Origin: a bacterium
GTDB lineage: Bacteria; Patescibacteriota; Minisyncoccia; Phycocordibacterales; UBA5272
Assembly: GCA_043719155.1 (NCBI GenBank)
Contig: JAYSUJ010000038.1
Location: 1-61,506, forward strand
Length of the DNA: 61,506 nt
Direction of reading: 5' to 3'
The notes under the pieces were generated by a model, which worked only from the letters and a program-made list of their open reading frames with translations, was not told where the DNA came from and ran no database searches. Positions 56 to 13,292 of this stretch are shown one piece after another. The number at the start of each line of letters is the position of its first letter. Positions within the stretch are counted from its first letter, which is position 1. Both the position numbers and the translations under genes were made by a program.

Positions 56-1327
56 TTGGGAGTGGTTTTTAAATTCTTAAAAGGGAGCGGGTCTAATGAT
101 TTAATACCTCAAAGTATTAATCCTCGTAAAATCACTAAAGCAGAAATTAAAGTATTGGAAGACTCACTTACTAAATTTGGTTTAGTTGAAATACCAGCTG
201 TGAATTTTGATAATACAATTCTCGCAGGTCATCAAAGGTGTATGATTTTAAAATTACTAAATCGTGGTGAAGAATTAATTGATGTTAGATACCCAAATAG
301 ACAGCTTGATACAGATGAAGCAAATAAGTATTTGCTGTTAAGTAACAAGTCAGGTGGCACTTGGGATTATGATCTACTTAAGAAATTTGACATGGGAATA
401 TTAGAGTTTGCGGGGTTCGATAAAATTGAATTATCAAAAGAATGGGATGGAATGCCTATTAAAAAAGTAAAAGAATTTGATGTAGATAAAGCTGTCAAAG
501 AAGTTAAAAACCCTATCACTAAGCTCGGAGATAGAATATTACTTGGAGATAATGTTCTCATCTGTGGTGACAGTACCGATTCAGACACAGTTAAAAGATT
601 AATGAATGGTAAAAAAGCTAGTCTCATAAATACAGATACGCCCTACAATCAAAATCTTGACTACAATAAAGGTGTAGGAGGTAATAATTCTAAAAGAAAT
701 TATGGCGGCGATGTGCAAGATGATTTACCAGACAGTGAATACAAAGAATTCGTTAGAAAAATAATGAAAAATGCACTCGATAACTCACATGAAGATGTAC
801 ATGCATTTTTCTGGTGCTCAGATTATTACATTTGGGTATTTCAAACGAACTATTTAGAGCTTGGACTGCAAAACAAGAGGGTTCTATCTTGGGTAAAAAA
901 CAATGCCTCGCCGACACCTATGGTCGCATTTAACAGAGCTACTGAAAGCTGTTGCTATGCAGTGAGAGGTAAACCGTATCTAAATGATACTATTAATAAT
1001 CTAAACGAGATACAAAATGATGATATCGGTACAGGTAATGAAATGCTAGATAATCTAAATAACTTACTTTTAGTTAAAAGATTATCTTCTAATAAATATC
1101 AGCATCCAACCGAGAAGAATCCTGAGGTTCACTTTAAAGCTTTAAAACGTTTCTCTAAAATAGGTGACATAGCACTCGATTTAACTGCTGGATCTGGCTC
1201 AATATTGACTGCGTGTCATGAGTTAAAGCGCATAGCATATATGTGCGAGCTCAATCCTGTATTTTGCGATGTAATAGTTAAAAGATATGAATTGTTAACT
1301 GGTAAAAAAGCAGAATATATTAAATAG
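56..1327 (+). CDS. ParB-like nuclease domain fused to N6-adenine/N4-cytosine DNA methyltransferase (phage type)
   Basis: N-terminus has INPRKI...ILAGHQR (ParB-like). A central TDTPYN (DPPY-type catalytic motif) precedes the C-terminal DLTAGSGS (FxGxG SAM motif), which is the beta-class order. The track uses a TTG start. Confidence 0.8.
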   Translation: MGVVFKFLKGSGSNDLIPQSINPRKITKAEIKVLEDSLTKFGLVEIPAVNFDNTILAGHQRCMILKLLNRGEELIDVRYPNRQLDTDEANKYLLLSNKSGGTWDYDLLKKFDMGILEFAGFDKIELSKEWDGMPIKKVKEFDVDKAVKEVKNPITKLGDRILLGDNVLICGDSTDSDTVKRLMNGKKASLINTDTPYNQNLDYNKGVGGNNSKRNYGGDVQDDLPDSEYKEFVRKIMKNALDNSHEDVHAFFWCSDYYIWVFQTNYLELGLQNKRVLSWVKNNASPTPMVAFNRATESCCYAVRGKPYLNDTINNLNEIQNDDIGTGNEMLDNLNNLLLVKRLSSNKYQHPTEKNPEVHFKALKRFSKIGDIALDLTAGSGSILTACHELKRIAYMCELNPVFCDVIVKRYELLTGKKAEYIK

Positions 1328-1328
1328 T

Positions 1329-1703
1329 ATGAAAACTAATCTCAAAAAAGAACTGCTCGAGCAACTGAAGACTATACCCATAGTGGAGCTAGCTTGTAGC
1401 AAGGTAGGAATATCTAGGCAGACATACTATCGCTGGTTAAAGTCTTCCAAAGATTTTTCTCTTCAAGTTGAAGAATCTAAAAAGCAAGGTGTTTCCTATG
1501 TAAATGATATGACTGAAACTGAACTCTTGAATTTAATTCAAGACAAGAATTTTCAAGCTGTAGCTTTTTGGTTAAAACATAGACATCCTGAGTATAGGAA
1601 TAAAGTGGAAATTACAACAGCAGAAAAAGATAAGGAATTAACCAAAGAGCAAAAAGAAATCATTAGTCAAACTATAAAGCAATTAACTAATCATGAAAAC
1701 TAA
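1329..1703 (+). CDS. HTH protein, putative terminase small subunit
   Basis: HTH-like segment VGISRQTYYRWLK. The gene lies immediately upstream of TerL and overlaps it by 11 nt. Confidence 0.5.
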   Translation: MKTNLKKELLEQLKTIPIVELACSKVGISRQTYYRWLKSSKDFSLQVEESKKQGVSYVNDMTETELLNLIQDKNFQAVAFWLKHRHPEYRNKVEITTAEKDKELTKEQKEIISQTIKQLTNHEN

Positions 1704-3168
1704 AATCATAATACCGAACAATCGTGCCGAAGCTGTTAAAAATCTAGATGACCCAGCCATTAGGGTTGGGGTGACAAAAAATTCTTTTCTTTTGTTTTTA
1801 CAAATATATTTTCCACATCATTTAAATTACAAATTAGCATATATGCACATGGAAATGATAAATATTTGTGAGTCTACAGAAATTGAGCTAGCCCTCATCA
1901 TGGCTTTTCGTGGATCAGGTAAATCTACCATTGTGTCTAATGCTTACCCGCTTTGGGCAATATTAGGAGCTCAAAAGAAAAAGTTTGTAGTCATAATTAC
2001 TAAAACTATTGATCAAGCTAAAATCATAATGAGAAACATTAAATCCGAAGCCGAAGACGAGGGATTTCTTAAAAAAGATTTAGGACCTTTTAAAGAAGTC
2101 TCTGATGAATGGGGAGCAGAAAGTATAATCTTCAAAAATGAAGATGCTAGGATTATGGTTTTATCTATTGAAAAAAGTTTAAAAGGTATAAAGCATAGGC
2201 AACATAGACCAGACTTGATAATCCTAGATGATGTGGAAGACAATGAATCTACAAAGACAAGGGCTGGTAGGGACAAAACTTTTGAAAAGTATGTGCGTGA
2301 GATAGTCCCACTCGGTGATAAAAATACCAAGATACTCCATGTTGGAAATATGCTACATAATAATTCTCTCATGATGCGATTATCTGAAAATATCTTAAGT
2401 ACCGACAGTCATCAAGTCTTTAAAAGATATCCAATTATAGACGAGAAGAACAATATATTGTGGCAAAGTAAATTTACTGATCTTTTGGAAATTGAAAAGC
2501 TAAGAAAGAAAGTTGGAGATGAAGTGGCATGGCATTTAGAATACTTACTCAGAGTCATAGCTAATGTCGGGCAAATTGTTAACCCTAAAGATATACAGTT
2601 TTATGATAATATTCCAGCTAATAAAATATCTAGAGACGGATATTTTCCAACTAGGAAAATCATAGTTGGTATAGACTTGGCTATTTCTGAAAGTAACAAC
2701 GCTGACTTTACCGCAATAGTCCCAGTGCTATACAACAAAGTAAATGATAAATGGGAAGCCTATGTACTCAAAGAGTTTGTACATAAAAGACTACAATTTC
2801 CAGAAGTTATAAAAATAATAATGGAATTAAATAAATCATTAAAACTCTATACTAATAATATTGAGTTTGCAGTTGAAAGTGTGGGTTATCAAGAAGCAGT
2901 AGTACAAGCTGTAAAAGCTGAGGATGAATATGTAGAAATAGTTGGTGTAGGCGTAAGGCTAGGTAAAGAAGAAAGACTGAGATCCATTACTCCTATGTTT
3001 TCAAATAAATTACTATTCTTCCCAAGTGTTGGTGCTGAAGTATTGATAGAAGAGATTTTAGGCTTTGGTAGTGAAAAGCATGATGACTTGGTAGACGCTT
3101 TAGTGTATGCACTACGCCGTGGTTATGAAAGTATTTTAAATACTGAAGAGGTATTTATTGCAGAATAA
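1693..3168 (+). CDS. Phage terminase large subunit
   Basis: Walker A FRGSGKST, Walker B DLIILDDVED, and a C-terminal RNaseH-like nuclease region (GIDLAIS...DFTAIV...HDDLVDAL). The 491 aa size fits. Confidence 0.85.
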   Translation: MKTKIIIPNNRAEAVKNLDDPAIRVGVTKNSFLLFLQIYFPHHLNYKLAYMHMEMINICESTEIELALIMAFRGSGKSTIVSNAYPLWAILGAQKKKFVVIITKTIDQAKIIMRNIKSEAEDEGFLKKDLGPFKEVSDEWGAESIIFKNEDARIMVLSIEKSLKGIKHRQHRPDLIILDDVEDNESTKTRAGRDKTFEKYVREIVPLGDKNTKILHVGNMLHNNSLMMRLSENILSTDSHQVFKRYPIIDEKNNILWQSKFTDLLEIEKLRKKVGDEVAWHLEYLLRVIANVGQIVNPKDIQFYDNIPANKISRDGYFPTRKIIVGIDLAISESNNADFTAIVPVLYNKVNDKWEAYVLKEFVHKRLQFPEVIKIIMELNKSLKLYTNNIEFAVESVGYQEAVVQAVKAEDEYVEIVGVGVRLGKEERLRSITPMFSNKLLFFPSVGAEVLIEEILGFGSEKHDDLVDALVYALRRGYESILNTEEVFIAE

Positions 3169-4020: not shown

Positions 4021-4467
4021 TTAATCTTTTAATTCATCTAATAACTTTTTGAGCTTGTAAGGATTCGCTACATTGTATAGGACAACTTCTTCACCTCCAG
4101 ACCCTGCTGTATTTATAGCTATTGTTCCTGACTTTGTGAGCAGTCTTTGAAAGAAAGATTCGGATACAAAAACATCAGTTATTTTATTATAATCAATACT
4201 TGTTAAATTGGTAGACAGCCAACCTCTGTGTATAAGAACTCTTTTGTTTGTAAAAGCATAAATATTTGCTTTCTTTAAGTAAAAGAAATAATAGAAAGCT
4301 GGGAAAATTGCACCAAGTCCAAGTAAAGCTAATGTAAATATTCCGAGCACTATTGTCCAGAATCCTCCCCAGATATTTATATATCTGTTGCTTATAGAAA
4401 ATTCTTCTTTAATAATTTCATCTTTAGATAAAACTTTTTGCCAAGTGGCATTTGTTTGTGTATTCAT
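4021..4467 (-). CDS. Membrane protein with bacterial PH domain (YdbS/bPH_2-like)
   Basis: Two adjacent TM helices are followed by YAFTNKRVLIHRGWLS...IDYNKITDV, which is typical of bPH_2 proteins. Confidence 0.6.
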   Translation of the reverse strand: MNTQTNATWQKVLSKDEIIKEEFSISNRYINIWGGFWTIVLGIFTLALLGLGAIFPAFYYFFYLKKANIYAFTNKRVLIHRGWLSTNLTSIDYNKITDVFVSESFFQRLLTKSGTIAINTAGSGGEEVVLYNVANPYKLKKLLDELKD

Positions 4468-4526: not shown

Positions 4527-4634
4527 AAAAGACTCCTCGCCATTGTTGTAAAAGTATTTCTACTTTTACACATACCAGTTTCCTAGTACGACCGCTACAG
4601 TGACTCTGACGAGGAGTCTTTTATACTGTAGCGG
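4527..4634 (+). promoter_or_regulatory. Highly structured non-coding element (nested perfect inverted repeats)
   Basis: A 13-bp stem pairs 4527-4539 with 4610-4622. An inner 10-bp hairpin pairs 4547-4556 with 4561-4570. A competing 9-bp pairing joins 4592-4600 with 4626-4634. No ORF is present. Confidence 0.4.
4585..4610 (+). repeat. Direct repeat copy 1: AGTACGACCGCTACA(GTG)ACTCTGAC
   Basis: Near-identical to 10700-10723. The two copies bracket the DGR/AAA+/vWA module. Confidence 0.6.
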
Positions 4635-4783
4635 ATTTAAAACCGTATTTTTCTGAAAAAAAACCTTAGGTTTCGTATTTAGAATAATAGCATATTCTCT
4701 ACTATTATTCTACCTATATTATATCGCAGAACCTTGAAAAGTTAGAGGATTGATTTTTAATTTTATGATATAATATATCTATT

Positions 4784-5164
4784 ATGGAAAACTTACAAAC
4801 ATTTTTAGAAAAAATAGTAAGCACGACTTCGGTGTCAGCTATTATCACCAGCAAAGAAAATGTTTCTGAAATAGAAAAAGTTTTAACTTCAAACTCTTTT
4901 TCTAAAACAGAAAACATTGATAAATTACAAGATAATTTAATTTTAAAAAGAAAAGTATTCATTTCTGATATTTATGAAAATAATGTTTTAGATTGGTATG
5001 ATGTAGCACATGGATTTTCTAGTGGGCAAATAATAATCGAAGAAAAAAACATTCGCATAAATCCTAATTATGAAAAGATGAATATTATCTATATTCTAGA
5101 AAAAGAAATAGTAGAAAAATATCCAAAATTATTAGAAGTAATTTCATTAACTTTAACAATGTAA
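4784..5164 (+). CDS. Hypothetical protein, first gene of the DGR target operon
   Basis: ORF with an extended -10 box (TGATATAAT at about 4766-4774) 9 nt upstream of the ATG. A 4-nt gap separates it from the next CDS. Confidence 0.5.
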   Translation: MENLQTFLEKIVSTTSVSAIITSKENVSEIEKVLTSNSFSKTENIDKLQDNLILKRKVFISDIYENNVLDWYDVAHGFSSGQIIIEEKNIRINPNYEKMNIIYILEKEIVEKYPKLLEVISLTLTM

Positions 5165-5168
5165 TTTT

Positions 5169-6842
5169 ATGATAACTCCAGAACAAAGACCATTGCAAGC
5201 TATAATTCCAGAAACTGTAAACGTGCATGGTATAGAATTAAAAAGAGCAAAAATAACAACAGGTGCTCCCAAAAAAGAATCCTTTACTGACTATGTAGAA
5301 GATGGTATGGCTGTAGAAATGCAACAAAAAGTTGCAAAGGCTTGGCTCATGGATGAGCCGGTACTACTTGAGGGAGGCACATCACTTGGTAAAACAAGAA
5401 CAGTTCTAAAGATGTGCTCCGATCTTGGATATGAAGCTCATAAACTTGTTCTAAGTAGAGAAACAGACAGAATGGAAATCTTAGGTAGTCCCACCGTAAA
5501 CCCAGATCAAGGTACAAAAACTGAAACTGGAGAAACTGATGAAAGAAAATTCATAATTGTGCTAAGTCAATTAGTAAAAGCTATACAACCAGAAGATGGG
5601 AAAATTAAAGTTTGTATTGTTGATGAATTTAATTCAGCTATGCCCGGGGTTGTTATACGTCTACATGAAATATTAGATGCATATAAATTTAATAGTTCGG
5701 AATTAGTTTTTGCCGAGCTTGGTGGGTTAAAAGTAAAGATAGACAGAAGTAAGGTAAAATTTGTTGCTCTAATGAACCCACCAGGAAATGGATATAGTGA
5801 CAGAAATCAAATTGATCCTGCAAACCTTCGTCGCTGGGTATATCAGAAACTACCAAACTCTATGCCAGAAGATGTACTTAGAGACTCAATAGATACAGTA
5901 TTTGGTTTAGATTCGAAAGCAAAGGCTGAAACTTCTGTTACTCCAATTTTGAATAATAAGGAAGCCTTACCTCTTTCAGAATTTGAAAACATTAAAGGAA
6001 TTAGAGAGATATTACCTCAGTATTTAGCTTTTCATGAATCAATAAAAGCACAAATAGGACAAAGGCAAATAGCAAATGGTCAGCCACAAAGATTTACTTT
6101 TGACGATAGAGAAGAACCAAGAAGAGTGAGAAATTACATTGCTCAATTCTATCGTGGTGATATAAATGAAACAATGCAAGAAGCTCTTAGATATATTTAT
6201 GGGGGTAAAATAACAGACGACACAGAAAAAGCGAAAGTAGAAGAAATCATAAGAAAAGTTGCAGTTTTAGACAGCTCAAACAAAGATCGTAAAGGTTTAG
6301 CTGAACATACAGCAGAATCGCAGCCAATTCCTAGTGACCCTGCTTTTTGGCAAAAACCGGACATACAATCCATCATGGATAAGGACTTAGTGAAAGGAGT
6401 AGAATCTTCTCCAGGTATCATAAATTTAGAAACGAAAGGTTTTAAAGGTAAAACAGCTACACAGCTTATAGATCAAGGTAAATATGACGATATAGGAAGT
6501 TATCCAAAAGAATATGATAGACCAGAAGATAAAATTACATCTGACTCTTTAGAGGTAACTTTTTTAAATCCTACTAAGTCTAGAAAAACTACTGATATAA
6601 AAGCTGAGATGGATAGGCTGGGAGTTAGACCTCTTAATGCCCATGAACTATATGCGCTAGGTATAAAATACCCAGAGTTACAAAGAAAACAAGCTTTAAT
6701 AGCTTTAGGTTCTGCTAAAACTTTCGACGGTGGTACTCGCTTCCCGTATCTCTGGAGGGATGGCTCTGGTCGTAAGGTGTTCACGGGTGTCGGTAGTGAC
6801 GACTGGAATGATATTTGTCGTTTCCCTGTTGTCCGTAAATAG
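5169..6842 (+). CDS. DGR variable protein: N-terminal MoxR/CobS-type AAA+ ATPase with C-terminal lectin-like variable domain
   Basis: Walker A GGTSLGKT and Walker B KVCIVDEFN. The last 40 codons form the VR (KTFDGGTRFPYLWRDGSGRKVFTGVGSDDWNDICRFPVVRK). Confidence 0.85.
   Translation: MITPEQRPLQAIIPETVNVHGIELKRAKITTGAPKKESFTDYVEDGMAVEMQQKVAKAWLMDEPVLLEGGTSLGKTRTVLKMCSDLGYEAHKLVLSRETDRMEILGSPTVNPDQGTKTETGETDERKFIIVLSQLVKAIQPEDGKIKVCIVDEFNSAMPGVVIRLHEILDAYKFNSSELVFAELGGLKVKIDRSKVKFVALMNPPGNGYSDRNQIDPANLRRWVYQKLPNSMPEDVLRDSIDTVFGLDSKAKAETSVTPILNNKEALPLSEFENIKGIREILPQYLAFHESIKAQIGQRQIANGQPQRFTFDDREEPRRVRNYIAQFYRGDINETMQEALRYIYGGKITDDTEKAKVEEIIRKVAVLDSSNKDRKGLAEHTAESQPIPSDPAFWQKPDIQSIMDKDLVKGVESSPGIINLETKGFKGKTATQLIDQGKYDDIGSYPKEYDRPEDKITSDSLEVTFLNPTKSRKTTDIKAEMDRLGVRPLNAHELYALGIKYPELQRKQALIALGSAKTFDGGTRFPYLWRDGSGRKVFTGVGSDDWNDICRFPVVRK
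6719..6840 (+). repeat. DGR variable region (VR)
   Basis: 122-nt repeat aligned to TR without indels. There are 14 mismatches, 12 of them opposite TR adenines. Confidence 0.9.
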
Positions 6843-7175
6843 ATCTTGATCTTAAAATATTTATCTTTTGAATCTTTTTATTTTTCTTTTTTGATATATA
6901 ATATATATCGAGAGTATGGAATCTATACATGTACATGTTATATGCATGCCAGAAATCAATACACCTAAACGTCAGATTATAAGATTTTGTGCCTTTGCTC
7001 ACAGAGGGTAAAGGAAAGTTTGAAAACCTTGGTTTTCAAAAGCGCAAAATTTTTTAGAGTACTTTAGGGTTTCTTTGAAACAGTATTTGGTGTATATAAT
7101 AAATGTATTTAAATACAGACAAATTTTCAAACATTGTATAAGTATGATGTTGGTGGCATAGACTATTATATACGC

Positions 7176-7297
7176 AACTTTCGACGGTGATACTCACTTC
7201 CCGTATCTCTGGAGGAATGACTCTAGTCGTAAGGTGAACACGAATATCGACAATGACGACTGGAATGATATTTGTCGTTTCCCTGTTGTCCGCAAAT
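7176..7297 (+). repeat. DGR template region (TR)
   Basis: The invariant copy is non-coding in context. Read in the variable-protein frame it has Asn AAC/AAT codons at the variable sites. Confidence 0.9.
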
Positions 7298-7313
7298 GCA
7301 TGAATCAAAAAAA

Positions 7314-7345
7314 GAAAAGCACTAGTATTGATACTAGTGCTTTTC
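7314..7345. terminator. Perfect 14-bp hairpin (GAAAAGCACTAGTA-TTGA-TACTAGTGCTTTTC) between TR and avd
   Basis: It overlaps the avd stop codon. On the minus strand it is followed by a T-run, so it looks like the avd terminator. On the plus strand it sits about 17 nt after the TR end. Confidence 0.6.
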
Positions 7346-7732
7346 TGATTCCTTTAAGGCTTTATTATACCAGCCTGATAAAATTTTACTACATTCATCT
7401 AACTCTTTTATCAAATGTTCAAATTGTGATAATTTTATAGCATTAATTTCTGTGCCGATGCCTAATAGAAATTTTGTAGTGTCCAAATTCATGGATGCTC
7501 TTTTAATTAAAATGGGTCTAGTTTTATCTTTTGTGTTTATGGCTAAATGTATATCACTTATACAATTCACAAAAAGTGTGTCTATTTTTGTGCCTAAACT
7601 ATATCTATGAATTTTAGGAAATAGTATAATAATACTATGCCAAATTTTATAAGCAGTTTGAACTTTCAGAATAATTGTGGGTGTAGTATAGGTAGCGGTC
7701 ATACTAATAAATACATTATACAATATAATCAA
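7334..7732 (-). CDS. avd: Avd-like four-helix-bundle accessory protein (likely start at the internal Met, about 7702)
   Basis: The LFPKIHRYSLGTKID pattern and about 120 aa size are typical of Avd / S23-IVS four-helix-bundle proteins. It sits between TR and RT but on the opposite strand. Confidence 0.75.
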   Translation of the reverse strand: MIILYNVFISMTATYTTPTIILKVQTAYKIWHSIIILFPKIHRYSLGTKIDTLFVNCISDIHLAINTKDKTRPILIKRASMNLDTTKFLLGIGTEINAIKLSQFEHLIKELDECSKILSGWYNKALKESEKH

Positions 7733-8662
7733 TTAATTACACTAGAAAATTTGTATCGCTCTTGGGAAAAGTTTAAGAAAAGTAAAAGTAGCAGAGATGA
7801 CGTGGATAAGTTTGCGGTAAACTTGTTTACCAATCTTTTAAAAATAAAAAATGATTTGGAGCAGAATAAATTTGTTCACGATTCTTATCAAAATTTCATA
7901 GTATTTGACGTCAAAACTAGAATAATACATAAAGCAACTATCAGGGATAGAATTGTAAACAGATTAATGTATGATGAATTGGTTAAAATTTTTGATAAGA
8001 AATTTATTTTTGACTCATATTCTTGCAGAAAAGGAAAAGGCACTTTAAGAGCTTTGGAAAGGTATAAATATTTTTTTGGAAAAATTACAAAAAACTATAC
8101 AAAACAAGCTTGGGTTTTAAAGTTTGATATCAAAAAATGCTTTCAAAATGTAGACACAGAAATTTTAAAAAACTTACTTCAAAAACAGATTTGCGAATCA
8201 AATTTTCTAAACTTGAATTTCAGTATCATAGACTCATTTAAAAAATATGACATGGGCTTACCTTTAGGTAATTTAACATCTCAAATTTATTTAAATATTT
8301 ATTTGCACCAATTAGATTTTTATTGCAAAAATACTTTGAAAATAAAATACTATATCCGCTATGCTGATGATGTAGTTTGCATGTTTGAAAGTGAAGAATT
8401 TGCAGAAGAAACTCTCAAGAAGATACTTGAATTTACAAAAAATAAGCTAAAAATTGAACTACACAAAATACAAATTAAAACTATCTATAGTGGGACAGAT
8501 TTTTTAGGGTGGAAACATTACAAAAGTCATAGAACTATGAGGAAAAACACAGCATCTAAAATGATAGAAAATTTATCTGACAAAAATATCACAAGTTATC
8601 TGGGCTTACTTAATTTTGGAAGTGGCTATAAATTACAAGAAAAAATCAAAAAAATGATATAA
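7637..8662 (+). CDS. DGR reverse transcriptase
   Basis: Has LPLGNLTSQ (the DGR-specific [I/L]GxxxSQ motif), an IRYADDVV (YxDD) catalytic box, and RDRIV and DSYSCRKGKG motifs. The true start is uncertain because the annotated 5' end overlaps the avd 5' end. Confidence 0.9.
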   Translation: MPNFISSLNFQNNCGCSIGSGHTNKYIIQYNQLITLENLYRSWEKFKKSKSSRDDVDKFAVNLFTNLLKIKNDLEQNKFVHDSYQNFIVFDVKTRIIHKATIRDRIVNRLMYDELVKIFDKKFIFDSYSCRKGKGTLRALERYKYFFGKITKNYTKQAWVLKFDIKKCFQNVDTEILKNLLQKQICESNFLNLNFSIIDSFKKYDMGLPLGNLTSQIYLNIYLHQLDFYCKNTLKIKYYIRYADDVVCMFESEEFAEETLKKILEFTKNKLKIELHKIQIKTIYSGTDFLGWKHYKSHRTMRKNTASKMIENLSDKNITSYLGLLNFGSGYKLQEKIKKMI

Positions 8663-8672
8663 TGTAACTATT

Positions 8673-10607
8673 ATGAAATTAGAAAGTTTGAGCCCTATTA
8701 AAAATCCATTGGAACAATTTTCTCCTAAAGAAAAAGACACTATCCTCTCTAGACTTGCTGTTCTAACGCCACTTTGTCATATGGTTTCTGGTGATATACA
8801 AATGAAAGTGGAAGTAAATGGAGATGCTGGTTGGCATTGGGACTTTGAACATAATGTAGTTAGATGTGATCCAAAGGATTTACTCGAAAAACCAATTGAT
8901 TATTTAAGATTTGTAATGCAACACGAAGCTGGACACAGGAAAGTTACAAGAGTGAAAGGCGTGATCCCAGACGAAGTATGGGATCAGCCAGGATTTTCTT
9001 TTATGATCAATGCCATAGAAGACCCCAGAATGAATAATTATGTGGCAGACACAATTCCAAAATTTAGAGATGAAATGATTTTTAGTTATGGTCTAGATAA
9101 AGATTTTGAAGTAGAGATGAGAGCCAAAGCAAAAGATAAAACTGGGCAAATTCCAAGATTCATGCAGGCTGGTTTTGAATATATAAATTTATGGCTACAA
9201 GAAGTTAAAGGTACTCCAAAACAAATTGATCCTAGTTTGCCCGAAGATGTAAAAGCGGTAATAGAAAAAACTTTAGAAGCGGCTAGAAGTAGCTGGCTAA
9301 CTTATCCAACCAGAAAAGAAGTGGATAAAGGGGCTATGGTTTCGGGTAAAACATTAACAGGCGAAGAAACCATAACTGAATATGCAAGAGCAAGTTATCA
9401 GGTTAATTTAAACGATGTCTGGCCTCTGTTTAAGACTTTAATTGACCAAGATATAGAGGACTTAAAAGATCAATTAAAAAAAAAAGGTAAAGGTGGTGAT
9501 AAGGGTGAGAAAAGCAAAGACAAAGCCGACACTGGAAAACCAGAAGATTCAGAGTCAGGAGAAGAAAATGAACAAGGTGGAAGCGATGAGCAAATGACAG
9601 AATCAGAAGCGAGAGAACTTGCTACGCAAATAATTAAAGAAATAGAAAAAGCTTTAAACGAACATTTCGAAAGTAAAGACGAGTCTAAAGATGTGCCACA
9701 AGGTAAATCAGAAAAACCCAAAGAAGCTGATCAGCCAACAAAAACATCAGATAGAGTAGATAACACGGAAGATGCTAAGGTAGAAAAAGATAAAATTCAA
9801 CAAGCCCTAGATGAGATTAGAAAAAAATTCGAAGCAGAAACTCCAAAAGGTTTATATAGAAAAACTTTAGCTGAAGTATCTCCTATTATAACTAGACTAG
9901 AAGATGAACTAAGAGAAATCTTTGTGCAAAGGAAAAGAAATGCTTTTTTTTCTGGATTTAGATCAGGTGTGCAAGTGGATATAAAAAGAGAAATAGCTAG
10001 CGAGATGACAGGAGTACCAGACGCCAATACTTTTATGAAAAGAGAGCTACCTCTTGAGCACGATTATGCAATAGAAGTTCTAGTTGATTTGTCTGGCAGT
10101 ATGAGAGGTCAAAAAATTGACGAAACCTACAAAGCTGTAGTTGCACTCTGCGAAGCGTTAAAAAATATTGGAATAAATTTATCAGTGACAGGTTTTAATG
10201 ATAGACTTTATCAATATAAAAATTTTGATCAGAATTATACAGATGATTTAAGAGAAAATACAGAAAGAATGCACGCTGAGGTAAGTGGTAGTGGTGCTAG
10301 ATATAACGACGATGGCTGGGCAGTAAAAGAAGTGGCAGACAGAATTAAAAAAAGAAAAGAAAAAAGAAAAATAGTCTTTGTGCTATCTGACGGCTTGCCA
10401 GAAGAATCTCCTCAACATCAAAATTTTGAACTAAAACAAATTGTAGCTAATATTGAAGCTGAAAAAGAAATTCATATTATAGGTCTAGGTATAGGCCCAG
10501 GTACTGGTCACGTTAGTCGTTTTTATTCTGACAACTTAGCTGATGTTTCTCTTGCAGAATTTGCACATAAATTAGCTATAAAAGTTAGAGAAGCTGTTGA
10601 AAACTAA
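8673..10607 (+). CDS. Zincin-like (HExxH) N-domain, acidic/Lys-rich linker and C-terminal vWA domain protein (DUF2201/CobT-like partner of the AAA+)
   Basis: Has MQHEAGH, a low-complexity KKKGKGGDKGEKSKDKAD...ESGEENEQ linker, the MIDAS motif VDLSGSMRG, and VFVLSDG. Confidence 0.75.
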   Translation: MKLESLSPIKNPLEQFSPKEKDTILSRLAVLTPLCHMVSGDIQMKVEVNGDAGWHWDFEHNVVRCDPKDLLEKPIDYLRFVMQHEAGHRKVTRVKGVIPDEVWDQPGFSFMINAIEDPRMNNYVADTIPKFRDEMIFSYGLDKDFEVEMRAKAKDKTGQIPRFMQAGFEYINLWLQEVKGTPKQIDPSLPEDVKAVIEKTLEAARSSWLTYPTRKEVDKGAMVSGKTLTGEETITEYARASYQVNLNDVWPLFKTLIDQDIEDLKDQLKKKGKGGDKGEKSKDKADTGKPEDSESGEENEQGGSDEQMTESEARELATQIIKEIEKALNEHFESKDESKDVPQGKSEKPKEADQPTKTSDRVDNTEDAKVEKDKIQQALDEIRKKFEAETPKGLYRKTLAEVSPIITRLEDELREIFVQRKRNAFFSGFRSGVQVDIKREIASEMTGVPDANTFMKRELPLEHDYAIEVLVDLSGSMRGQKIDETYKAVVALCEALKNIGINLSVTGFNDRLYQYKNFDQNYTDDLRENTERMHAEVSGSGARYNDDGWAVKEVADRIKKRKEKRKIVFVLSDGLPEESPQHQNFELKQIVANIEAEKEIHIIGLGIGPGTGHVSRFYSDNLADVSLAEFAHKLAIKVREAVEN

Positions 10608-10732: not shown

Positions 10733-12052
10733 ATGAAAATGACACAAAATATAGGTAAAATAGAAAGTAATATAGTCTTTAAGGAAGAAGAAACTAAATA
10801 TGTACTGTACTCTCGTAAAAGTACTGAAGATGATGAATCACAAGCATTATCAATAGAATCTCAAGTAAAAGAAATGTTTGCTATTGCAGAGCGAGAAAAG
10901 CTCAATGTAGTAGAGATAAAAAGAGAAGCTCATAGTGCTAAAGCTTCAGGTCAGCGTCCAGTATTCTTAGAAATACTTAGTGATCTTAGATCTGGTAAAT
11001 ATAATGGCATACTGACATGGGCACCAGACAGACTAAGTAGAAACGCAGGAGATCTAGGCTCACTGGTAGACCTCATGGATCAAAAGAAATTAGCCCATAT
11101 ACAGACTTTTACTCAAAAGTTTACTAATGACCCCTCTCAGAAGTTTTTACTCATGATACTGTGTTCTCAGGCTAAATTAGAGAATGATAATAAGAGTATA
11201 AATGTAAAGCGTGGACTAAGAGCAAAGGTAGAGCTAGGATTATGGCCTGCAGTACCACCAGTAGGCTATTTAACTTCTAGTAATAAAGGAGATAGTGGTG
11301 TAGCAGTCATAGACGAGATAAGATCTAAATTGATCAAAGGAGCTTTTGAGAAAATAGGTTATGACGGTTGGAGCGGTGTTAAATCATATAACTGGCTGAG
11401 TAATGAAATGAAGTTTAAGGCTCCAAAGAATAAAACGCTCAGTAAAGGTAATTTCTACCTAACCCTTCGTAATACTTTCTATTACGGAGTCTTTGAATAC
11501 CCTAGAGAAAGTGGTAATTGGTATAAAGGGATACATACTCCGATAATAACTAAAGAATTATTTGATCTAGTACAACAAAGATTAAAAGATAACGCTCAAA
11601 GCTCAGGACCTAGGAATAAAGAATTTGCTTTTACTAGATTACTCACTTGTGGTAGCTGTCAGTCAGGCGTAACAGCTGAGGAGAAGTTTAAAGACTTGAA
11701 AGACGGTGGTAGAAGTAGGCATGTGTACTACAAATGTACTAGAGTAAGAGATCTTGAATGTTCAAATAGAATGAATGAAGGTGATCTCATAATTAAGTTA
11801 AAGATACTAATAGATACTATAGATTTAAATAGACTAGCTCTTAAAGAGAAAATACAGAAAGAAGTGACTAGATTTAAAAGATTTCAAAGTAGATTACTAC
11901 TAAATGACAGTAAGATAGTTTTAAAAGAAATAGACATCAGAGAATATGTAAAGTTCATATTAGATGAGGGAGAATTGGAAGAGAAAAGAGAAGTGCTGAA
12001 TTGTTTGAAAGGTAATTTGATATTTAGTAAGGATAAATTAATTTTAAAGTAA
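10733..12052 (+). CDS. Large serine recombinase / integrase
   Basis: Resolvase-type catalytic N-terminus YSRKSTEDDESQALSIESQ, WAPDRLSRN, a recombinase domain, and a Cys-rich zinc ribbon (CGSCQSG...YYKCT). Confidence 0.85.
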   Translation: MKMTQNIGKIESNIVFKEEETKYVLYSRKSTEDDESQALSIESQVKEMFAIAEREKLNVVEIKREAHSAKASGQRPVFLEILSDLRSGKYNGILTWAPDRLSRNAGDLGSLVDLMDQKKLAHIQTFTQKFTNDPSQKFLLMILCSQAKLENDNKSINVKRGLRAKVELGLWPAVPPVGYLTSSNKGDSGVAVIDEIRSKLIKGAFEKIGYDGWSGVKSYNWLSNEMKFKAPKNKTLSKGNFYLTLRNTFYYGVFEYPRESGNWYKGIHTPIITKELFDLVQQRLKDNAQSSGPRNKEFAFTRLLTCGSCQSGVTAEEKFKDLKDGGRSRHVYYKCTRVRDLECSNRMNEGDLIIKLKILIDTIDLNRLALKEKIQKEVTRFKRFQSRLLLNDSKIVLKEIDIREYVKFILDEGELEEKREVLNCLKGNLIFSKDKLILK

Positions 12053-12053
12053 C

Positions 12054-13094
12054 TTAGCCGAGTCTATTTGCAATTTCATTCAATAATATATCTAGATTTG
12101 CTTGAAAGCTTATCTGTGTCCTATTTATTGATAAAACCTTAGTATCCACTTGGGTGTGGAGATAGTTGTCACTAATTTTTCTAGCAGTATCTTCAAGTGG
12201 CTTCATAATATCTTTAAAGCTTTTAGAGCCATATTGCGTAGATACCTCTAAAAAACTTTTCTTTTTAAAAATAGGCGGAATATGATCTAAAATTGCCCTT
12301 AATAGCATAGAACATGAATAGTAGTTCTCTAATCCGAAATTATCATCAAGTTCTTTACATAAAGATATTAATCTACTGATATCAAAATCTTTATTTTCTA
12401 TTTTTGAAAGTCTCAATAATGTATTCCGATCTACAAATGACTGGAGAGAATTTTTTACTACTCCACCTACAACTGGTAAACGATTTATATCTATAGTAGC
12501 TTTCTCAACTACAAATAAAAAATCTTTGAGCTGATCAACTACACCCAACAGAAATAAAGCTGCTGCTTCAAAGTATTTATGAGTAGGGACCTGTCTACCA
12601 GCATAAAGTGCCTTGGTATCTCTAGTAATAAGTTGTCTTTTCCAATAATCATTAAAAATATCTGTTTTATTTTTAAGTATAAATTTTTCTATTTCTTTAG
12701 AATTTTCCCTCGAGTATTTAGAAATTAAAAGAATTATACTTTTCCTAATTTCTTCAAACTTATTTTCTATTTCTTCAGCTTCATTGTCAAATTTTTCAAA
12801 ATCAAAAGAGTCTTTAGGTTGAATTTGTATACGAATTTCAGTATCATTTTTTTCATTCCAACCATCTGGGATTCCACGTATTAAACCCCACTCAACATTA
12901 AATCTTTTATGAGCTGAAGGTGTCTCAAAGTTTTGATAGAACAAATTAGCATGCCCTACAAGATCTGAACCACTCCATGAATTATTTACAATATTGCAAG
13001 CTGTACTAACTTTTTTTGCAATCTTTTGTAAATTTATAGCTATAATAATCAAATTATTAATTTCTTTAATTTTATCTTGAATTTGATTATCCAT
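12054..13094 (-). CDS. Hypothetical protein (orphan cargo between integrase and tRNA)
   Basis: Long clean ORF convergent with the recombinase. I recognise no motif in it. Confidence 0.5.
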   Translation of the reverse strand: MDNQIQDKIKEINNLIIIAINLQKIAKKVSTACNIVNNSWSGSDLVGHANLFYQNFETPSAHKRFNVEWGLIRGIPDGWNEKNDTEIRIQIQPKDSFDFEKFDNEAEEIENKFEEIRKSIILLISKYSRENSKEIEKFILKNKTDIFNDYWKRQLITRDTKALYAGRQVPTHKYFEAAALFLLGVVDQLKDFLFVVEKATIDINRLPVVGGVVKNSLQSFVDRNTLLRLSKIENKDFDISRLISLCKELDDNFGLENYYSCSMLLRAILDHIPPIFKKKSFLEVSTQYGSKSFKDIMKPLEDTARKISDNYLHTQVDTKVLSINRTQISFQANLDILLNEIANRLG

Positions 13095-13128
13095 ATTAGT
13101 TTAATTATAACATTTATTAATTTTAAAA

Positions 13129-13160
13129 TAAAAAATAGCTGAAACTAATCAGCTATTTTT
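13129..13160. terminator. Bidirectional hairpin terminator (AAAAAATAGCTGA...TCAGCTATTTTTT)
   Basis: A 7-bp stem flanked by an A-run and a T-run. It lies downstream of tRNA-Tyr on the minus strand. Confidence 0.5.
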
Positions 13161-13206
13161 TATTCGTAATATATTGACATATGATAGATGTCGTGCTATC
13201 ACGAGG

Positions 13207-13292
13207 TGGTGCGGCGAGAAGGATTTGAACCTTCGAAGCCCGAAGGCGCCAGATTTACAGTCTAGTGCGATTGACCACTCCGCCATCGCCGC
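13207..13292 (-). tRNA. tRNA-Tyr (GTA), long variable arm, CCA encoded
   Basis: Cloverleaf read by hand: acceptor GCGGCGA/TCGCCGC, anticodon loop CTGTAAA, variable arm GCCTTCGGGC, T-arm GAAGG-TTCAAAT-CCTTC. Confidence 0.85.

Follow-up and report, generated by a model that had tools for sequence, protein, structure and literature searches.

Gene content of the locus

The stretch of DNA analysed here (the window) is 61,506 nucleotides long and carries, at positions 4784-10607, an intact diversity-generating retroelement (DGR) of a kind common in the candidate phyla radiation (CPR). The order is target gene with its variable repeat (VR), template repeat (TR), avd on the opposite strand, and then the reverse transcriptase (RT). 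The original prediction had placed a DGR with an AAA+ target here, and all the sequence features that it named are present at their coordinates. The features are the following.

4784..5164, plus strand: small conserved protein (126 aa here, ~135 aa in relatives), directly 5' of the AAA gene
5169..6842, plus strand: DGR target (variable protein), 557 aa; AAA_5 module (aa 1-376), low-confidence linker, VR-bearing C-terminal domain of ~100 aa
5169..6296, plus strand: AAA+ module and helical lid (from AlphaFold, Foldseek and conserved motifs)
5373-5396, plus strand: Walker A GGTSLGKT, aa 69-76 of the target
5619-5633, plus strand: Walker B VDEFN, aa 151-155 of the target
6099-6131, plus strand: family signature FDDREEPRRVR in the AAA+ module
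6540..6839, plus strand: C-terminal domain of ~100 aa hosting the VR, a family of its own by profile search
6719..6840, plus strand: VR, the final 40 codons of the target (stop codon 6840-6842)
7176..7297, plus strand: TR, with 32 adenines, 12 of them changed in the VR
7313..7346, no strand assigned: perfect 16-bp hairpin, 16 nt 3' of the TR, overlapping the avd stop codon
7334..7732, minus strand, opposite to the remaining cassette: avd (Avd accessory protein)
7637..8662, plus strand: DGR reverse transcriptase (RVT_1), with GNLTSQ at 8267-8284 and YADD at 8360-8371
8673..10607, plus strand: partner protein, 644 aa; N-terminal helical HExxH domain, Lys/Glu-rich disordered linkers, C-terminal vWA-MIDAS domain
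8922-8936, plus strand: HEAGH, aa 84-88 of the partner
9018-9023, plus strand: E116/D117 in the partner's N-domain
10086-10100, plus strand: MIDAS motif DLSGS, aa 472-476 of the partner
10383-10394, plus strand: LSDG, aa 571-574 of the partner (holds D573)
10733..12052, plus strand: large serine recombinase flanking the cassette (Pfam Resolvase, Recombinase, Zn_ribbon_recom)
13207-13292: tRNA-Tyr, on the recombinase side of the cassette

The DGR cassette

Over their 122 nt the VR and the TR differ at 14 positions; 12 of the mismatches fall on TR adenines (10 A>G, 2 A>T) and the other two are C>T. All 12 adenine-site changes are at codon positions 1 or 2, and the TR offers 23 mutable codons, five of which are AAY. 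The 3' 38 nt are identical in the two repeats and absent elsewhere in the window, which has a single VR, at the 3' end of the AAA_5 gene. Two related sequences (P0121 and P0250) differ from the window by 15 and 16 residues within the VR, respectively, and all of these residues lie on TR-adenine codons. Exact-pattern scans of metagenome contigs for within-population diversification of the VR gave no matches. The hairpin behind the TR resembles a bidirectional terminator.

The Avd protein matches NCBIfam DivGenRetAVD (E=1.2e-11) and Pfam bAvd (E=7.5e-10, 39.7 bits vs a cut-off of 40); the Avd of the related locus L007, on a Berkelbacteria chromosome, reaches 71 bits with bAvd. Many related loci have an Avd homologue on the minus strand as well, placed between TR and RT. 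We note that the minus-strand avd gene was absent from the account of the original prediction. The RT ORF matches Pfam RVT_1 (E=4e-24), and in the PDB it matches best to a reverse transcriptase of 328 aa (8ub7 series, E=1.9e-28), other RT classes scoring 5e-12 or weaker. The table label of the 8ub7 series is just 'Reverse transcriptase'; we take it to be the Bordetella phage DGR RT (Brt). The true start of the RT is probably 3' of 7637, since the ORF overlaps avd and homology starts near aa 27-30.

The ATPase and its variable C-terminal domain

Judged from its profile matches and predicted fold, the N-terminal module of the target is an AAA_5 ATPase of the MoxR/NorQ class. Residues 64-222 match Pfam AAA_5 above the gathering score (E=4.8e-9), pLDDT exceeds 90 across most of aa 4-376 of the AlphaFold model, and the best Foldseek matches of the module are NorQ (E ~1e-12), CbbQ (6l1q) and the MoxR protein CHU_0153 (2r44), in agreement with the MoxR-type ATPase originally proposed. 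The best PDB matches by sequence are the AAA modules of Midasin (E=8e-15), NorQ being marginal (E=0.55). Across 20 homologues the motif residues (Walker A, Walker B, N203 and R221/R222) do not vary.

The C-terminal part presents a different picture. In the AlphaFold model pLDDT is below 50 over most of aa 377-557, and searches for Pfam and PDB relatives of the VR domain found none. The domain nevertheless belongs to a large family: its profile, run against 1.84 billion representative proteins, retrieved 4061 clusters at E<=1e-3 and 1504 at E<=1e-10, and the domain sits at the extreme C terminus in 137 of 184 occurrences. It differs from the FGE-like type found in most sister proteins, to whose C-termini it has no profile similarity (hhalign probability 0.6%). 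The lectin-like tip suggested in the original prediction is not confirmed by these results. Ligand binding by the VR domain is assumed from its position and variability. Among relatives the same ATPase scaffold bears at least four unrelated types of variable C-terminal domain.

The vWA partner and the small third protein

The 644-aa protein encoded after the RT is a vWA partner of the NorD/CobT/Midasin type. Its Pfam matches are CobT_C (6.5e-15), VWA (3.3e-9) and VWA_2, a PDB profile search returned CobT (4e-20), Midasin (3e-12) and NorD (4e-7), and the AlphaFold model (mean pLDDT 79.8) resembles NorD and the MIDAS domain of Midasin/Rea1 in Foldseek. The 68 homologues compared all keep DxSxS, D573 and H84/E85/H88. 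The HExxH motif sits on a predicted helix after a three-stranded sheet, and comparison of its domain with peptidase families and structures gave no family or fold match. Thus, of the zincin-like/vWA protein that had been predicted, the vWA part is confirmed by the NorD, CobT and Midasin matches, whereas the zincin part has the invariant HExxH as its one sign.

Related loci were found in 77 cases, nearly all in Patescibacteria. The vWA gene adjoins the AAA gene in 71 of them; the other six are truncated contigs or have the vWA gene on a separate contig, and no locus with sufficient sequence on both sides is without it. Co-conservation of the vWA gene, named beforehand as a point on which the prediction could fail, is thus strongly borne out. 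In about 60 of 68 loci the vWA and AAA genes are separated by an ORF of 124-159 aa, and an HMM built from 59 such small ORFs matches the window ORF at 4784-5164 (E=1e-18). The alignment of the small proteins has a conserved motif, YDF..QYPTGQ, and neither Pfam nor PDB relatives were found for them. This third component had been overlooked in the original prediction.

The gene order in the window is a circular permutation of the usual one, i.e. the vWA gene comes after the RT and not before the small ORF. Altogether the locus contains a conserved three-gene module, consisting of an AAA_5 ATPase, a vWA-MIDAS/HExxH protein and a ~135-aa protein, of which the ATPase is the sole DGR target in the window. 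Of 71 complete AAA genes, at least 39 have A-biased VR/TR pairs (at least 80% of the mismatches at TR adenines). An RT lies within 6 kb in 39 of the 55 loci that have at least 3.5 kb of downstream sequence; in the remainder, about 16 of 55, the three-gene module has no RT within that distance. The module therefore works without local diversification too, and its core job may be housekeeping.

No transmembrane segment or signal peptide was detected in the target, the vWA protein or the small ORF (no 19-residue Kyte-Doolittle window above 1.3, while a neighbouring membrane protein, taken as control, scores 2.33). All three proteins are therefore predicted to be cytoplasmic, which agrees with the location first suggested for the target.

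Comparison with known systems

The ATPase-fused DGR target, whose novelty was at first over-estimated, is already known from the CPR. Wu et al. 2018 matched one CPR target class to the Midasin AAA domain ('UVR4'/Midasin, category g1, architecture B3; PMC5758913), and Paul et al. 2017, as cited by Dore et al. 2024 (PMC10907252), described CPR DGR variable proteins fused to an AAA ATPase. As far as these sources are accessible, their systems share with the window the patescibacterial host, an N-terminal AAA/Midasin-like P-loop domain, a C-terminal VR, the TR/avd/RT layout and a target without transmembrane segment or signal peptide. A partnership with an adjacent vWA/HExxH gene and a ~135-aa gene finds no mention in the searchable literature, in which Paul et al. 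2017 is represented through Dore et al. 2024.

The NorQ-NorD couple provides the best fold matches for both proteins, NorQ for the ATPase and NorD for the partner, and here too the two genes are adjacent. NorD is built like the partner: its N-domain is followed by a disordered linker and then, at the C terminus, by a vWA domain bearing a MIDAS motif. However, diversification and a C-terminal binding domain are both absent from NorQ, HExxH is missing from the N-domain of NorD, and no nitric oxide reductase genes were seen beside the cassette. The cobaltochelatase proteins CobS/CobT and similar pairs of tailed phages likewise consist of an AAA_5 ATPase and a vWA domain of the CobT_C type. PHROG families with the annotations CobT and porphyrin biosynthesis match, and phage CobT-like/VWFA proteins gave fold matches over the full length. 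The partner nevertheless scores 49.7 bits with the NCBIfam CobT equivalog model, against a cut-off of 759, CobN was not seen among the neighbouring ORFs, and tblastn identity to phage proteins is ~30% over one third of the protein. We know of no link between these phage pairs and DGRs.

Midasin/Rea1 resembles both proteins: besides the match of its AAA modules to the ATPase, its C terminus aligns to the acidic linker and MIDAS domain of the partner. It is a single eukaryotic polypeptide of ~4,700-4,900 residues with six fused AAA modules, whereas in the window AAA and MIDAS are on separate bacterial genes and the ATPase has a variable domain attached. The MoxR-vWA-VMAP ternary conflict systems resemble the module in having, next to a MoxR ATPase and a vWA protein, a third protein, and in the diversification of a binding domain of one component by a DGR (PMC7159879, PMC10907252). 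In multicellular bacteria the targets of these systems are predicted to be cytoplasmic and a sensing role was proposed (PMC7159879, PMC10907252). Their variable C-type lectin domain is, however, on the vWA protein or a separate sensor, not on the ATPase, and no VMAP, caspase, trypsin, TIR or adaptor (EAD) domains were detected in the window module. Most CPR RTs form a clade separate from the RTs of these systems (Dore et al. 2024, PMC10907252), and CPR were excluded from the multicellularity statistics of Kaur et al. 2020 (PMC7159879). The DGR of Bordetella phage BPP-1 (Mtd/Avd/Brt) likewise mutates adenines on the way from TR to VR, has a C-terminal VR and includes Avd, and its RT would be the 8ub7 match named above; there the target is a C-type lectin protein of the phage tail fibre, acting extracellularly (PMC7159879), and the avd gene of the window, on the opposite strand, follows the TR instead of preceding it.

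Proposed function and alternative interpretations

We propose that Avd and the RT copy the TR RNA with adenine-specific errors and that the resulting cDNA replaces the final ~120 nt of the AAA gene. Up to 23 codons of the ~100-aa C-terminal binding domain would be recoded in this way, giving about 10^17-10^18 protein variants. If the couples NorQ-NorD and CbbQ-CbbO are a guide, the AAA module may form a hexamer on which one vWA partner docks, and ATP hydrolysis would pull or twist this partner; in NorQD the vWA domain inserts a finger into the AAA pore, and the client is bound at the MIDAS site (PMC9976466, PMC13036017). Such a ring would display six copies of the variable domain, which is therefore proposed to choose the intracellular macromolecule that the machine captures. 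The vWA-MIDAS and HExxH domains would then hold the captured molecule and remodel or cleave it. The likeliest role, and the least certain step, would be the recognition of fast-evolving foreign proteins (of phages, other mobile elements or a host) in conflict. A transducer role was proposed for the CPR AAA-fused targets by Dore et al. 2024 (PMC10907252). With PADLOC defence models the RT was the sole match at the locus. Taken as a whole, a DGR-diversified AAA-vWA module with the variable domain as specificity selector and a role in conflict is the reading that we consider moderately probable; the programmable remodelling or recognition machine originally envisaged may describe it.

Other readings have to be weighed against this. 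It is unlikely that a phage-derived integrative element carries the cassette as cargo and that the AAA-vWA machine serves the element and not the cell, e.g. in host takeover, counter-defence or superinfection exclusion. The serine recombinase is probably a mobility function of the surrounding element; it lies with tRNA-Tyr on one side of the cassette, and on the other side are a DNA methylase, a TerS-like HTH protein and a large terminase (phrog_38, E=2e-74). L007 shares this methylase-TerS-TerL-cassette-recombinase-tRNA layout and has an amidase in addition, recombinase homologues stand beside the cassette in 11 related loci, the permuted gene order of the window fits as well, and the nearest non-CPR families are the phage CobS/CobT-like pairs. 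However, among the related loci L007 alone shares the terminase and methylase, most 10-kb flanks are without the neighbour genes of the window, the AAA family occurs on 3 of 2.9 million IMG/VR viral contigs as against 77 cellular loci, and capsid or tail genes were seen neither in the window element nor in L007. Quite improbable, in our view, is a housekeeping chaperone or metal-insertion system with the DGR as a secondary or neutral add-on, although several homologues are named 'cobalamin biosynthesis protein CobT' or 'MoxR-like ATPase' by JGI, structural comparison puts metal-insertion or enzyme-activation couples first, and there are the loci without a nearby RT. The low CobT equivalog score speaks against it, as do the HExxH-bearing N-domain of the partner, which does not align to the CobT and NorD N-domains, and the fact that CobN, nitric oxide reductase and Rubisco genes were not seen among the ORFs adjacent to the cassette. 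Moreover, the several types of variable C-terminal domain, together with the frequency of DGR targets among the AAA genes, point to selection on changing specificity rather than on one fixed client.

In episymbiotic CPR a DGR target is usually taken for a surface or secreted adhesin for host attachment whose tip binds host-cell ligands extracellularly, and characterised targets are mostly surface-displayed. We consider this very unlikely here: none of the three proteins has an export signal or membrane anchor, the ATPase that carries the variable domain has kept its catalytic motifs and requires ATP from the cytoplasm, and both partners are closest to the NorQ/NorD couple, held by its authors to be most likely cytosolic because signal peptides are lacking (PMC9976466, PMC13036017). 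It is most improbable that the DGR is a decaying or inactive relic with historical VR/TR differences. The two C>T mismatches, the marginal Pfam score of Avd and the overlap of the RT ORF with avd could be seen in this light, and Wu et al. 2018 warn of many inactivated genomic DGRs (PMC5758913). Nevertheless, every ORF is intact, the RT keeps YADD and GNLTSQ, the adenine-site changes avoid the third codon position, the 3' ends of VR and TR are identical, and the VRs of close relatives differ at TR-adenine codons only.

In the reading that we prefer, and as far as the predicted structures allow, the locus would be a DGR that rewrites the tip of a cytoplasmic AAA+ motor in a CPR bacterium, the motor working with a vWA/metalloprotease-like partner and a small one.

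Anatomy of the diversity-generating retroelement

The interval 4784-10607 contains five ORFs on the plus strand and one on the minus strand. The features that make up the diversity-generating retroelement (DGR) are listed below.

5169-6842, plus strand: AAA target gene, 557 aa; Pfam AAA_5 at aa 64-222 (E=4.8e-9, above the gathering score); motifs GGTSLGKT and VDEFN
6719-6840, plus strand: variable repeat (VR), the final 122 nt (last 40 codons) of the ORF 5169-6842, with a copy at 7176-7297
7176-7297, plus strand: template repeat (TR), the copy of the VR
7334-7732, minus strand: avd; Pfam bAvd E=7.5e-10 (0.3 bits below the Pfam cut-off) and NCBIfam DGR Avd 1.2e-11, likewise below its cut-off
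7637-8662, plus strand: reverse transcriptase (RT); RVT_1 E=4e-24; GNLTSQ at aa 211-216 and YADD at aa 242-245

The VR and the TR differ at 14 positions, 12 of them at TR adenines (10 A>G and 2 A>T) and the other two being C>T changes. In other words, 12 of the 32 TR adenines are altered in the VR, and all 12 changes fall on codon positions 1 or 2. The 3' 38 nt are identical in both repeats and are found nowhere else in the window, in which a DNA search and a domain search gave no second VR. The TR contains 23 mutable codons, including 5 AAY codons, with a capacity of about 10^17-10^18 protein variants. The same pattern is seen among relatives: P0121 and P0250, two near relatives of the target protein with its C-terminal domain, have VRs that differ from that of the window at 15 and 16 residues, respectively, all of them on TR-adenine codons. 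This would be indirect evidence of ongoing diversification. Scans of metagenome contigs with exact or degenerate DNA patterns gave no further VR variants.

The best PDB match of the RT is a 328-aa RT (E=1.9e-28), which we take to be the Bordetella phage DGR enzyme; other RT classes match at 5e-12 or weaker. The [LIV]GxxxSQ-type motif and the YxDD motif are both present, and these motifs would place the enzyme in the DGR clade. The avd gene, which was missing from the feature list of the original prediction, has positional homologues in related loci. Since many of these loci likewise have avd on the minus strand between TR and RT, the layout of the DGR in the window is typical for the candidate phyla radiation (CPR). 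The DGR is real and appears to be intact.

As called, the ORFs of the RT and of avd are divergent and overlap by about 96 nt (7637-7732). Homology begins at about aa 27-30 in the RT and at about aa 20-28 in Avd, therefore the true starts of both are probably internal. A perfect inverted repeat (16 bp, with 2 nt between the arms) is located at 7313-7346, 16 nt past the TR, where it overlaps the avd stop codon; this hairpin has a terminator score on both strands. If it does terminate transcription, the TR RNA and the RT would come from separate transcripts.

The ATPase module and its vWA partner

The N-terminus of the target protein was predicted to be an AAA+ module, and this is borne out by the Pfam match as well as by matches to MoxR-family folds. 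A word-indexed search found at least 301 relatives of the ATPase, all of them with AAA_5, the named ones being from Patescibacteria; their identity over aa 1-376 is 36-58%. The residues G70-T76 (Walker A), D152/E153 (Walker B), N203 and R221/R222 are invariant among the relatives, as is the family-specific sequence FxFDDREEPRRVR. Judging from their positions, N203 is probably sensor 1 and R221/R222 the arginine finger. The AlphaFold model of aa 4-376 has pLDDT values mostly above 90. In a Foldseek search with the ATPase model NorQ ranked first (E about 1e-12), followed by CbbQ (6l1q) and the MoxR protein CHU_0153 (2r44), with MCM proteins next. At the sequence level the best PDB matches are the AAA modules of Midasin (8e-15), which agrees with the report that the CPR 'UVR4' targets resemble a Midasin domain (Wu et al. 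2018, PMC5758913).

The 644-aa protein encoded at 8673-10607 belongs to a family that is conserved over its full length: most of the 120 matches listed, out of 518, cover 95-100% of the query. Pfam identifies VWA and CobT_C, and the DxSxS...D MIDAS motif is present in the C-terminal vWA domain. A profile of the protein matched CobT (4e-20), Midasin (3e-12, from the acidic linker through the MIDAS domain) and NorD (4e-7) in the PDB, and in the Foldseek search NorD and the MIDAS domains of Midasin/Rea1 ranked first. H84, E85, H88, E116, D117, D472, S474 and D573 are invariant in 68 homologues, and S476 is nearly so. The vWA MIDAS domain of the original prediction is therefore supported by Pfam, by the invariant D472, S474 and D573, and by the fold matches. 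We note that the ATPase and its partner, which were matched separately, both point to the same solved couple, NorQ-NorD.

The AlphaFold model of the partner (mean pLDDT 79.8) consists of a mainly helical N-domain followed by two disordered charged linkers and the vWA domain; two segments of low confidence (422-435 and 447-461) are just ahead of the vWA core. The HEAGH sequence is on a predicted helix (75-91) that follows a predicted three-stranded sheet (strands 45-65). The N-domain gave nothing with Pfam at E<=10, with a profile search of the PDB, or with Pfam on 20 homologues, and the vWA domain dominates the matches of the whole-model Foldseek search. The earlier description of this protein as zincin-like is therefore tentative and at the level of the motif: the invariant HExxH on a predicted helix speaks for it, the Pfam and PDB searches gave no peptidase match, and the N-domain has no detectable relative.

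Conservation of the three-gene module

A one-genome-per-species scan gave 77 loci, nearly all in MAGs of Patescibacteria. Using tblastn with the window proteins, both halves of the vWA gene were found beside the ATPase gene in 71 of the 77 loci (68 upstream on the same strand, 3 downstream), so the vWA gene is co-conserved with the ATPase gene, as the proposed pairing required. Of the remaining six loci, five have the ATPase gene directly against a contig end. In L004, the sixth, a second contig of this MAG ends with the vWA gene, which there follows avd and RT as it does in the window.

In about 60 of the 68 loci, an ORF encoding 124-159 aa occupies the space (about 500 bp) that separates the vWA gene from the ATPase gene. 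An HMM built from these ORFs matches the window ORF 4784-5164 (E=1e-18), and by this match the small protein is a third conserved component of the module. It has no Pfam, PDB, PHROG or NCBIfam match; by these searches, both the small protein and the HExxH N-domain appear to be members of no described family.

The association with the DGR is looser. A 3'-terminal repeat with at least 80% of the mismatches at TR adenines was found for 39 of 71 complete ATPase genes. In the 55 loci with at least 3.5 kb of downstream sequence, an RT is located within 6 kb in 39 and is missing in about 16, therefore the triad of vWA/HExxH protein, small protein and ATPase is the stable unit and the DGR a frequent add-on.

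Typical CPR cassettes were also seen in third-party-assembly MAGs labelled as Gammaproteobacteria, Pseudomonadales, Bdellovibrionales, Geobacteraceae, Anaerolineaceae or Micrarchaeota (L010, L022, L026, L031, L064, L066, L067, L072, L079 and others). These labels may reflect mis-binning or mis-classification and not true spread beyond Patescibacteria.

The variable C-terminal domain

The target protein was predicted to end in a hypervariable, lectin-like tip. Hypervariability is confirmed, as relatives differ in the VR; the lectin-like character is not, given a model of low confidence and no relative in Pfam or the PDB. In the AlphaFold model aa 377-557 have pLDDT below 50 over most of their length. 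The model is poor because the alignment is shallow in this region, a word-indexed search with the C-terminal 172 aa having given one relative.

A profile of the last 100 aa, compared with 1.84 billion representative proteins, matched 4061 clusters (at 50% identity) at E<=1e-3 and 1504 at E<=1e-10. The carriers, some of which have 2 or 3 copies, are mostly about 200 aa long and have the domain at their very C-terminal end. There was no Pfam match to a lectin or FGE family in 50 members even at E<=10, no Pfam model in 10 full-length carriers, and no PDB relative in a profile search. Most sister ATPases have FGE-like C-termini, which themselves bear only a faint resemblance to SUMF2 (E=0.31); hhalign gave a probability of 0.6% for a relationship between these and the VR domain. 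By eye only, the sequence G-x-R-P-x-T-x-x-E-L and the terminal R-F-x-x-V-R-K recall C-type lectin domains, a motif-level likeness that is only an impression. The VR is seated in a very large unannotated domain family, which is useful for annotation.

It is apparent that one ATPase scaffold carries at least four unrelated types of C-terminal VR domain (relatives P0003-P0007 and P0013-P0120). One relative of 859 aa (P0007) has two different types in tandem.

Relatives of about 490 aa (e.g. P0008 and P0012) have yet another C-terminus. Many related loci, including L007 (12108-13076), L033, L043, L048, L049, L054, L059, L073, L078 and L080, contain a second long repeat of 150-270 nt with 70-80% identity to the 3' end of the ATPase gene, in which the mismatches are not adenine-specific. 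In L007, a Berkelbacteria chromosome, this repeat is within the 3' part of a separate 322-aa ORF and was therefore read as a second gene with the same C-terminal domain, possibly an additional DGR target.

Genomic context

The cassette is preceded by genes for a DNA methylase (N6/N4), a TerS-like HTH protein, a large terminase (phrog_38, 2e-74), a GIY-YIG protein and a bPH protein, and by a LOOT RNA. It is followed by a large serine recombinase, an ORF without assignment and a tRNA-Tyr.

4021-4467, minus strand: bPH-domain gene
4550-4672, minus strand: LOOT RNA (RF03000), Rfam 64.8 bits against a gathering score of 46.4, between the bPH gene and the cassette
12054-13094, minus strand: 346-aa ORF between the serine recombinase and the tRNA-Tyr

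Neither Pfam nor PHROG gave a match to the 346-aa ORF, and the related loci contain no homologue of it. In L007 (3278-18086) the succession of methylase, TerS, TerL, cassette, recombinase and tRNA is found again, with an additional amidase and a tRNA-Ser in place of the tRNA-Tyr, and recombinases flank the cassette in 11 loci. The cassette looks as if it were within a small integrative, phage-derived element (window 56-3168 and 10733-13292), in which no capsid or tail genes were seen.

In most of the loci L005-L080 the cassette begins with the vWA gene (vWA, small ORF, ATPase, TR, avd, RT), and the window has a circularly permuted form of this usual order (small ORF, ATPase, TR, avd, RT, vWA). 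The permuted order is common to the closest relative MAG (L004 and L085) and hints at movement through a circular intermediate. Taken together, these observations suggest that in some lineages the cassette is carried by integrative elements of phage origin. Against this, the ATPase family is present on only 3 IMG/VR contigs and most flanks share none of the neighbours seen in the window. Outside the CPR, the relatives that come closest are the CobS/CobT-like pairs found in tailed phages.

Comparison with known systems

Three other assignments were considered and rejected. In the case of an aerobic cobaltochelatase (CobS/CobT), the vWA protein scores 49.7 bits with the TIGR01651 CobT model, for which the cut-off is 759, and the ORFs adjoining the cassette include no gene for CobN or the cobalamin pathway. 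The VMAP ternary conflict systems (Kaur et al. 2020, PMC7159879) also have a variable domain, which in their case is a lectin on the vWA subunit, whereas in the triad the variable domain is on the ATPase. Searches of the three proteins gave no VMAP, peptidase S1/C14, TIR or EAD domain, and the sole trace is one stray VMAP-M5 match (E=0.15) in one homologue. A surface adhesin would need an export signal, and the ATPase protein has no segment hydrophobic enough for a TM helix or a signal peptide: its maximum Kyte-Doolittle value is 0.96, as compared to 2.33 in a neighbouring membrane protein. The original reading of the target as a protein without signal peptide or TM helix therefore holds. Whether CPR targets are truly non-membrane proteins was left open by Roux et al. 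2021.

For the mechanism, NorQ-NorD and CbbQ/CbbO were taken as the systems for comparison. These have the same vWA pairing; unlike the protein described here, their ATPase subunits are without a diversified domain.

DGRs constitute roughly 80% of the reverse transcriptases in the CPR (PMC8632793). AAA-fused CPR targets were already reported by Paul et al. 2017, according to Dore et al. 2024 (PMC10907252), and the CPR targets in Wu et al. 2018 (PMC5758913) include P-loop/Midasin-like ones with unclassified VRs. The headline architecture has therefore been catalogued, though it is uncharacterised. A vWA partner for CPR targets is unmentioned in Wu et al. 2018, Roux et al. 2021 and two reviews, and no literature pairing a DGR with CobT was found. 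Four features are without mention in the literature searched, i.e. the vWA/HExxH partner, the small third protein, the size of the VR-domain family and the permuted order; Paul et al. 2017, which we know via Dore et al. 2024, might report them first.

Possible mechanism and role

In NorQD and CbbQO the vWA domain inserts a finger into the AAA pore, the client is bound at the MIDAS site, and the linker of the partner comes under strain through ATP hydrolysis (for NorQD see PMC9976466 and PMC13036017). By analogy, the ATPase of the triad would form a ring on which one vWA partner docks. Each ATPase subunit ends in a diversified domain, which we propose selects a macromolecule for capture, and the MIDAS/HExxH partner would then hold, remodel or cleave it.

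The most plausible setting for such a machine would be conflict, i.e. the recognition of phage, mobile-element or host proteins. This is proposed because different variable domains were grafted repeatedly onto one scaffold, because there is a parallel with the DGR-linked MoxR-vWA systems of multicellular bacteria (Dore et al. 2024; Kaur et al. 2020), and because mobile elements are associated with the cassette. With the PADLOC defence models only the RT was matched.

A more specific reading, which we put forward tentatively and consider rather unlikely, is that the triad forms an intracellular recognition system of its own in ultra-small CPR bacteria, possibly derived from phages. The ATPase ring would act as an anticipatory receptor, the DGR would continually re-programme the six variable domains of each hexamer to capture unpredictable foreign proteins, and the vWA-MIDAS/metalloprotease partner would clamp, remodel or cleave them. 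If true, this would amount to an effector of immunity or conflict that resembles an antibody, is driven by ATP and differs in mechanism from the VMAP ternary systems.

The locus studied here and its 77 relatives show that the motor subunit of a compact, probably cytoplasmic three-gene MoxR-vWA module is a very common target in the CPR; the module is small enough for reconstitution in a heterologous host. The question of what CPR DGRs diversify thereby becomes a testable one, namely what a NorQD-like machine with a programmable binding domain captures.
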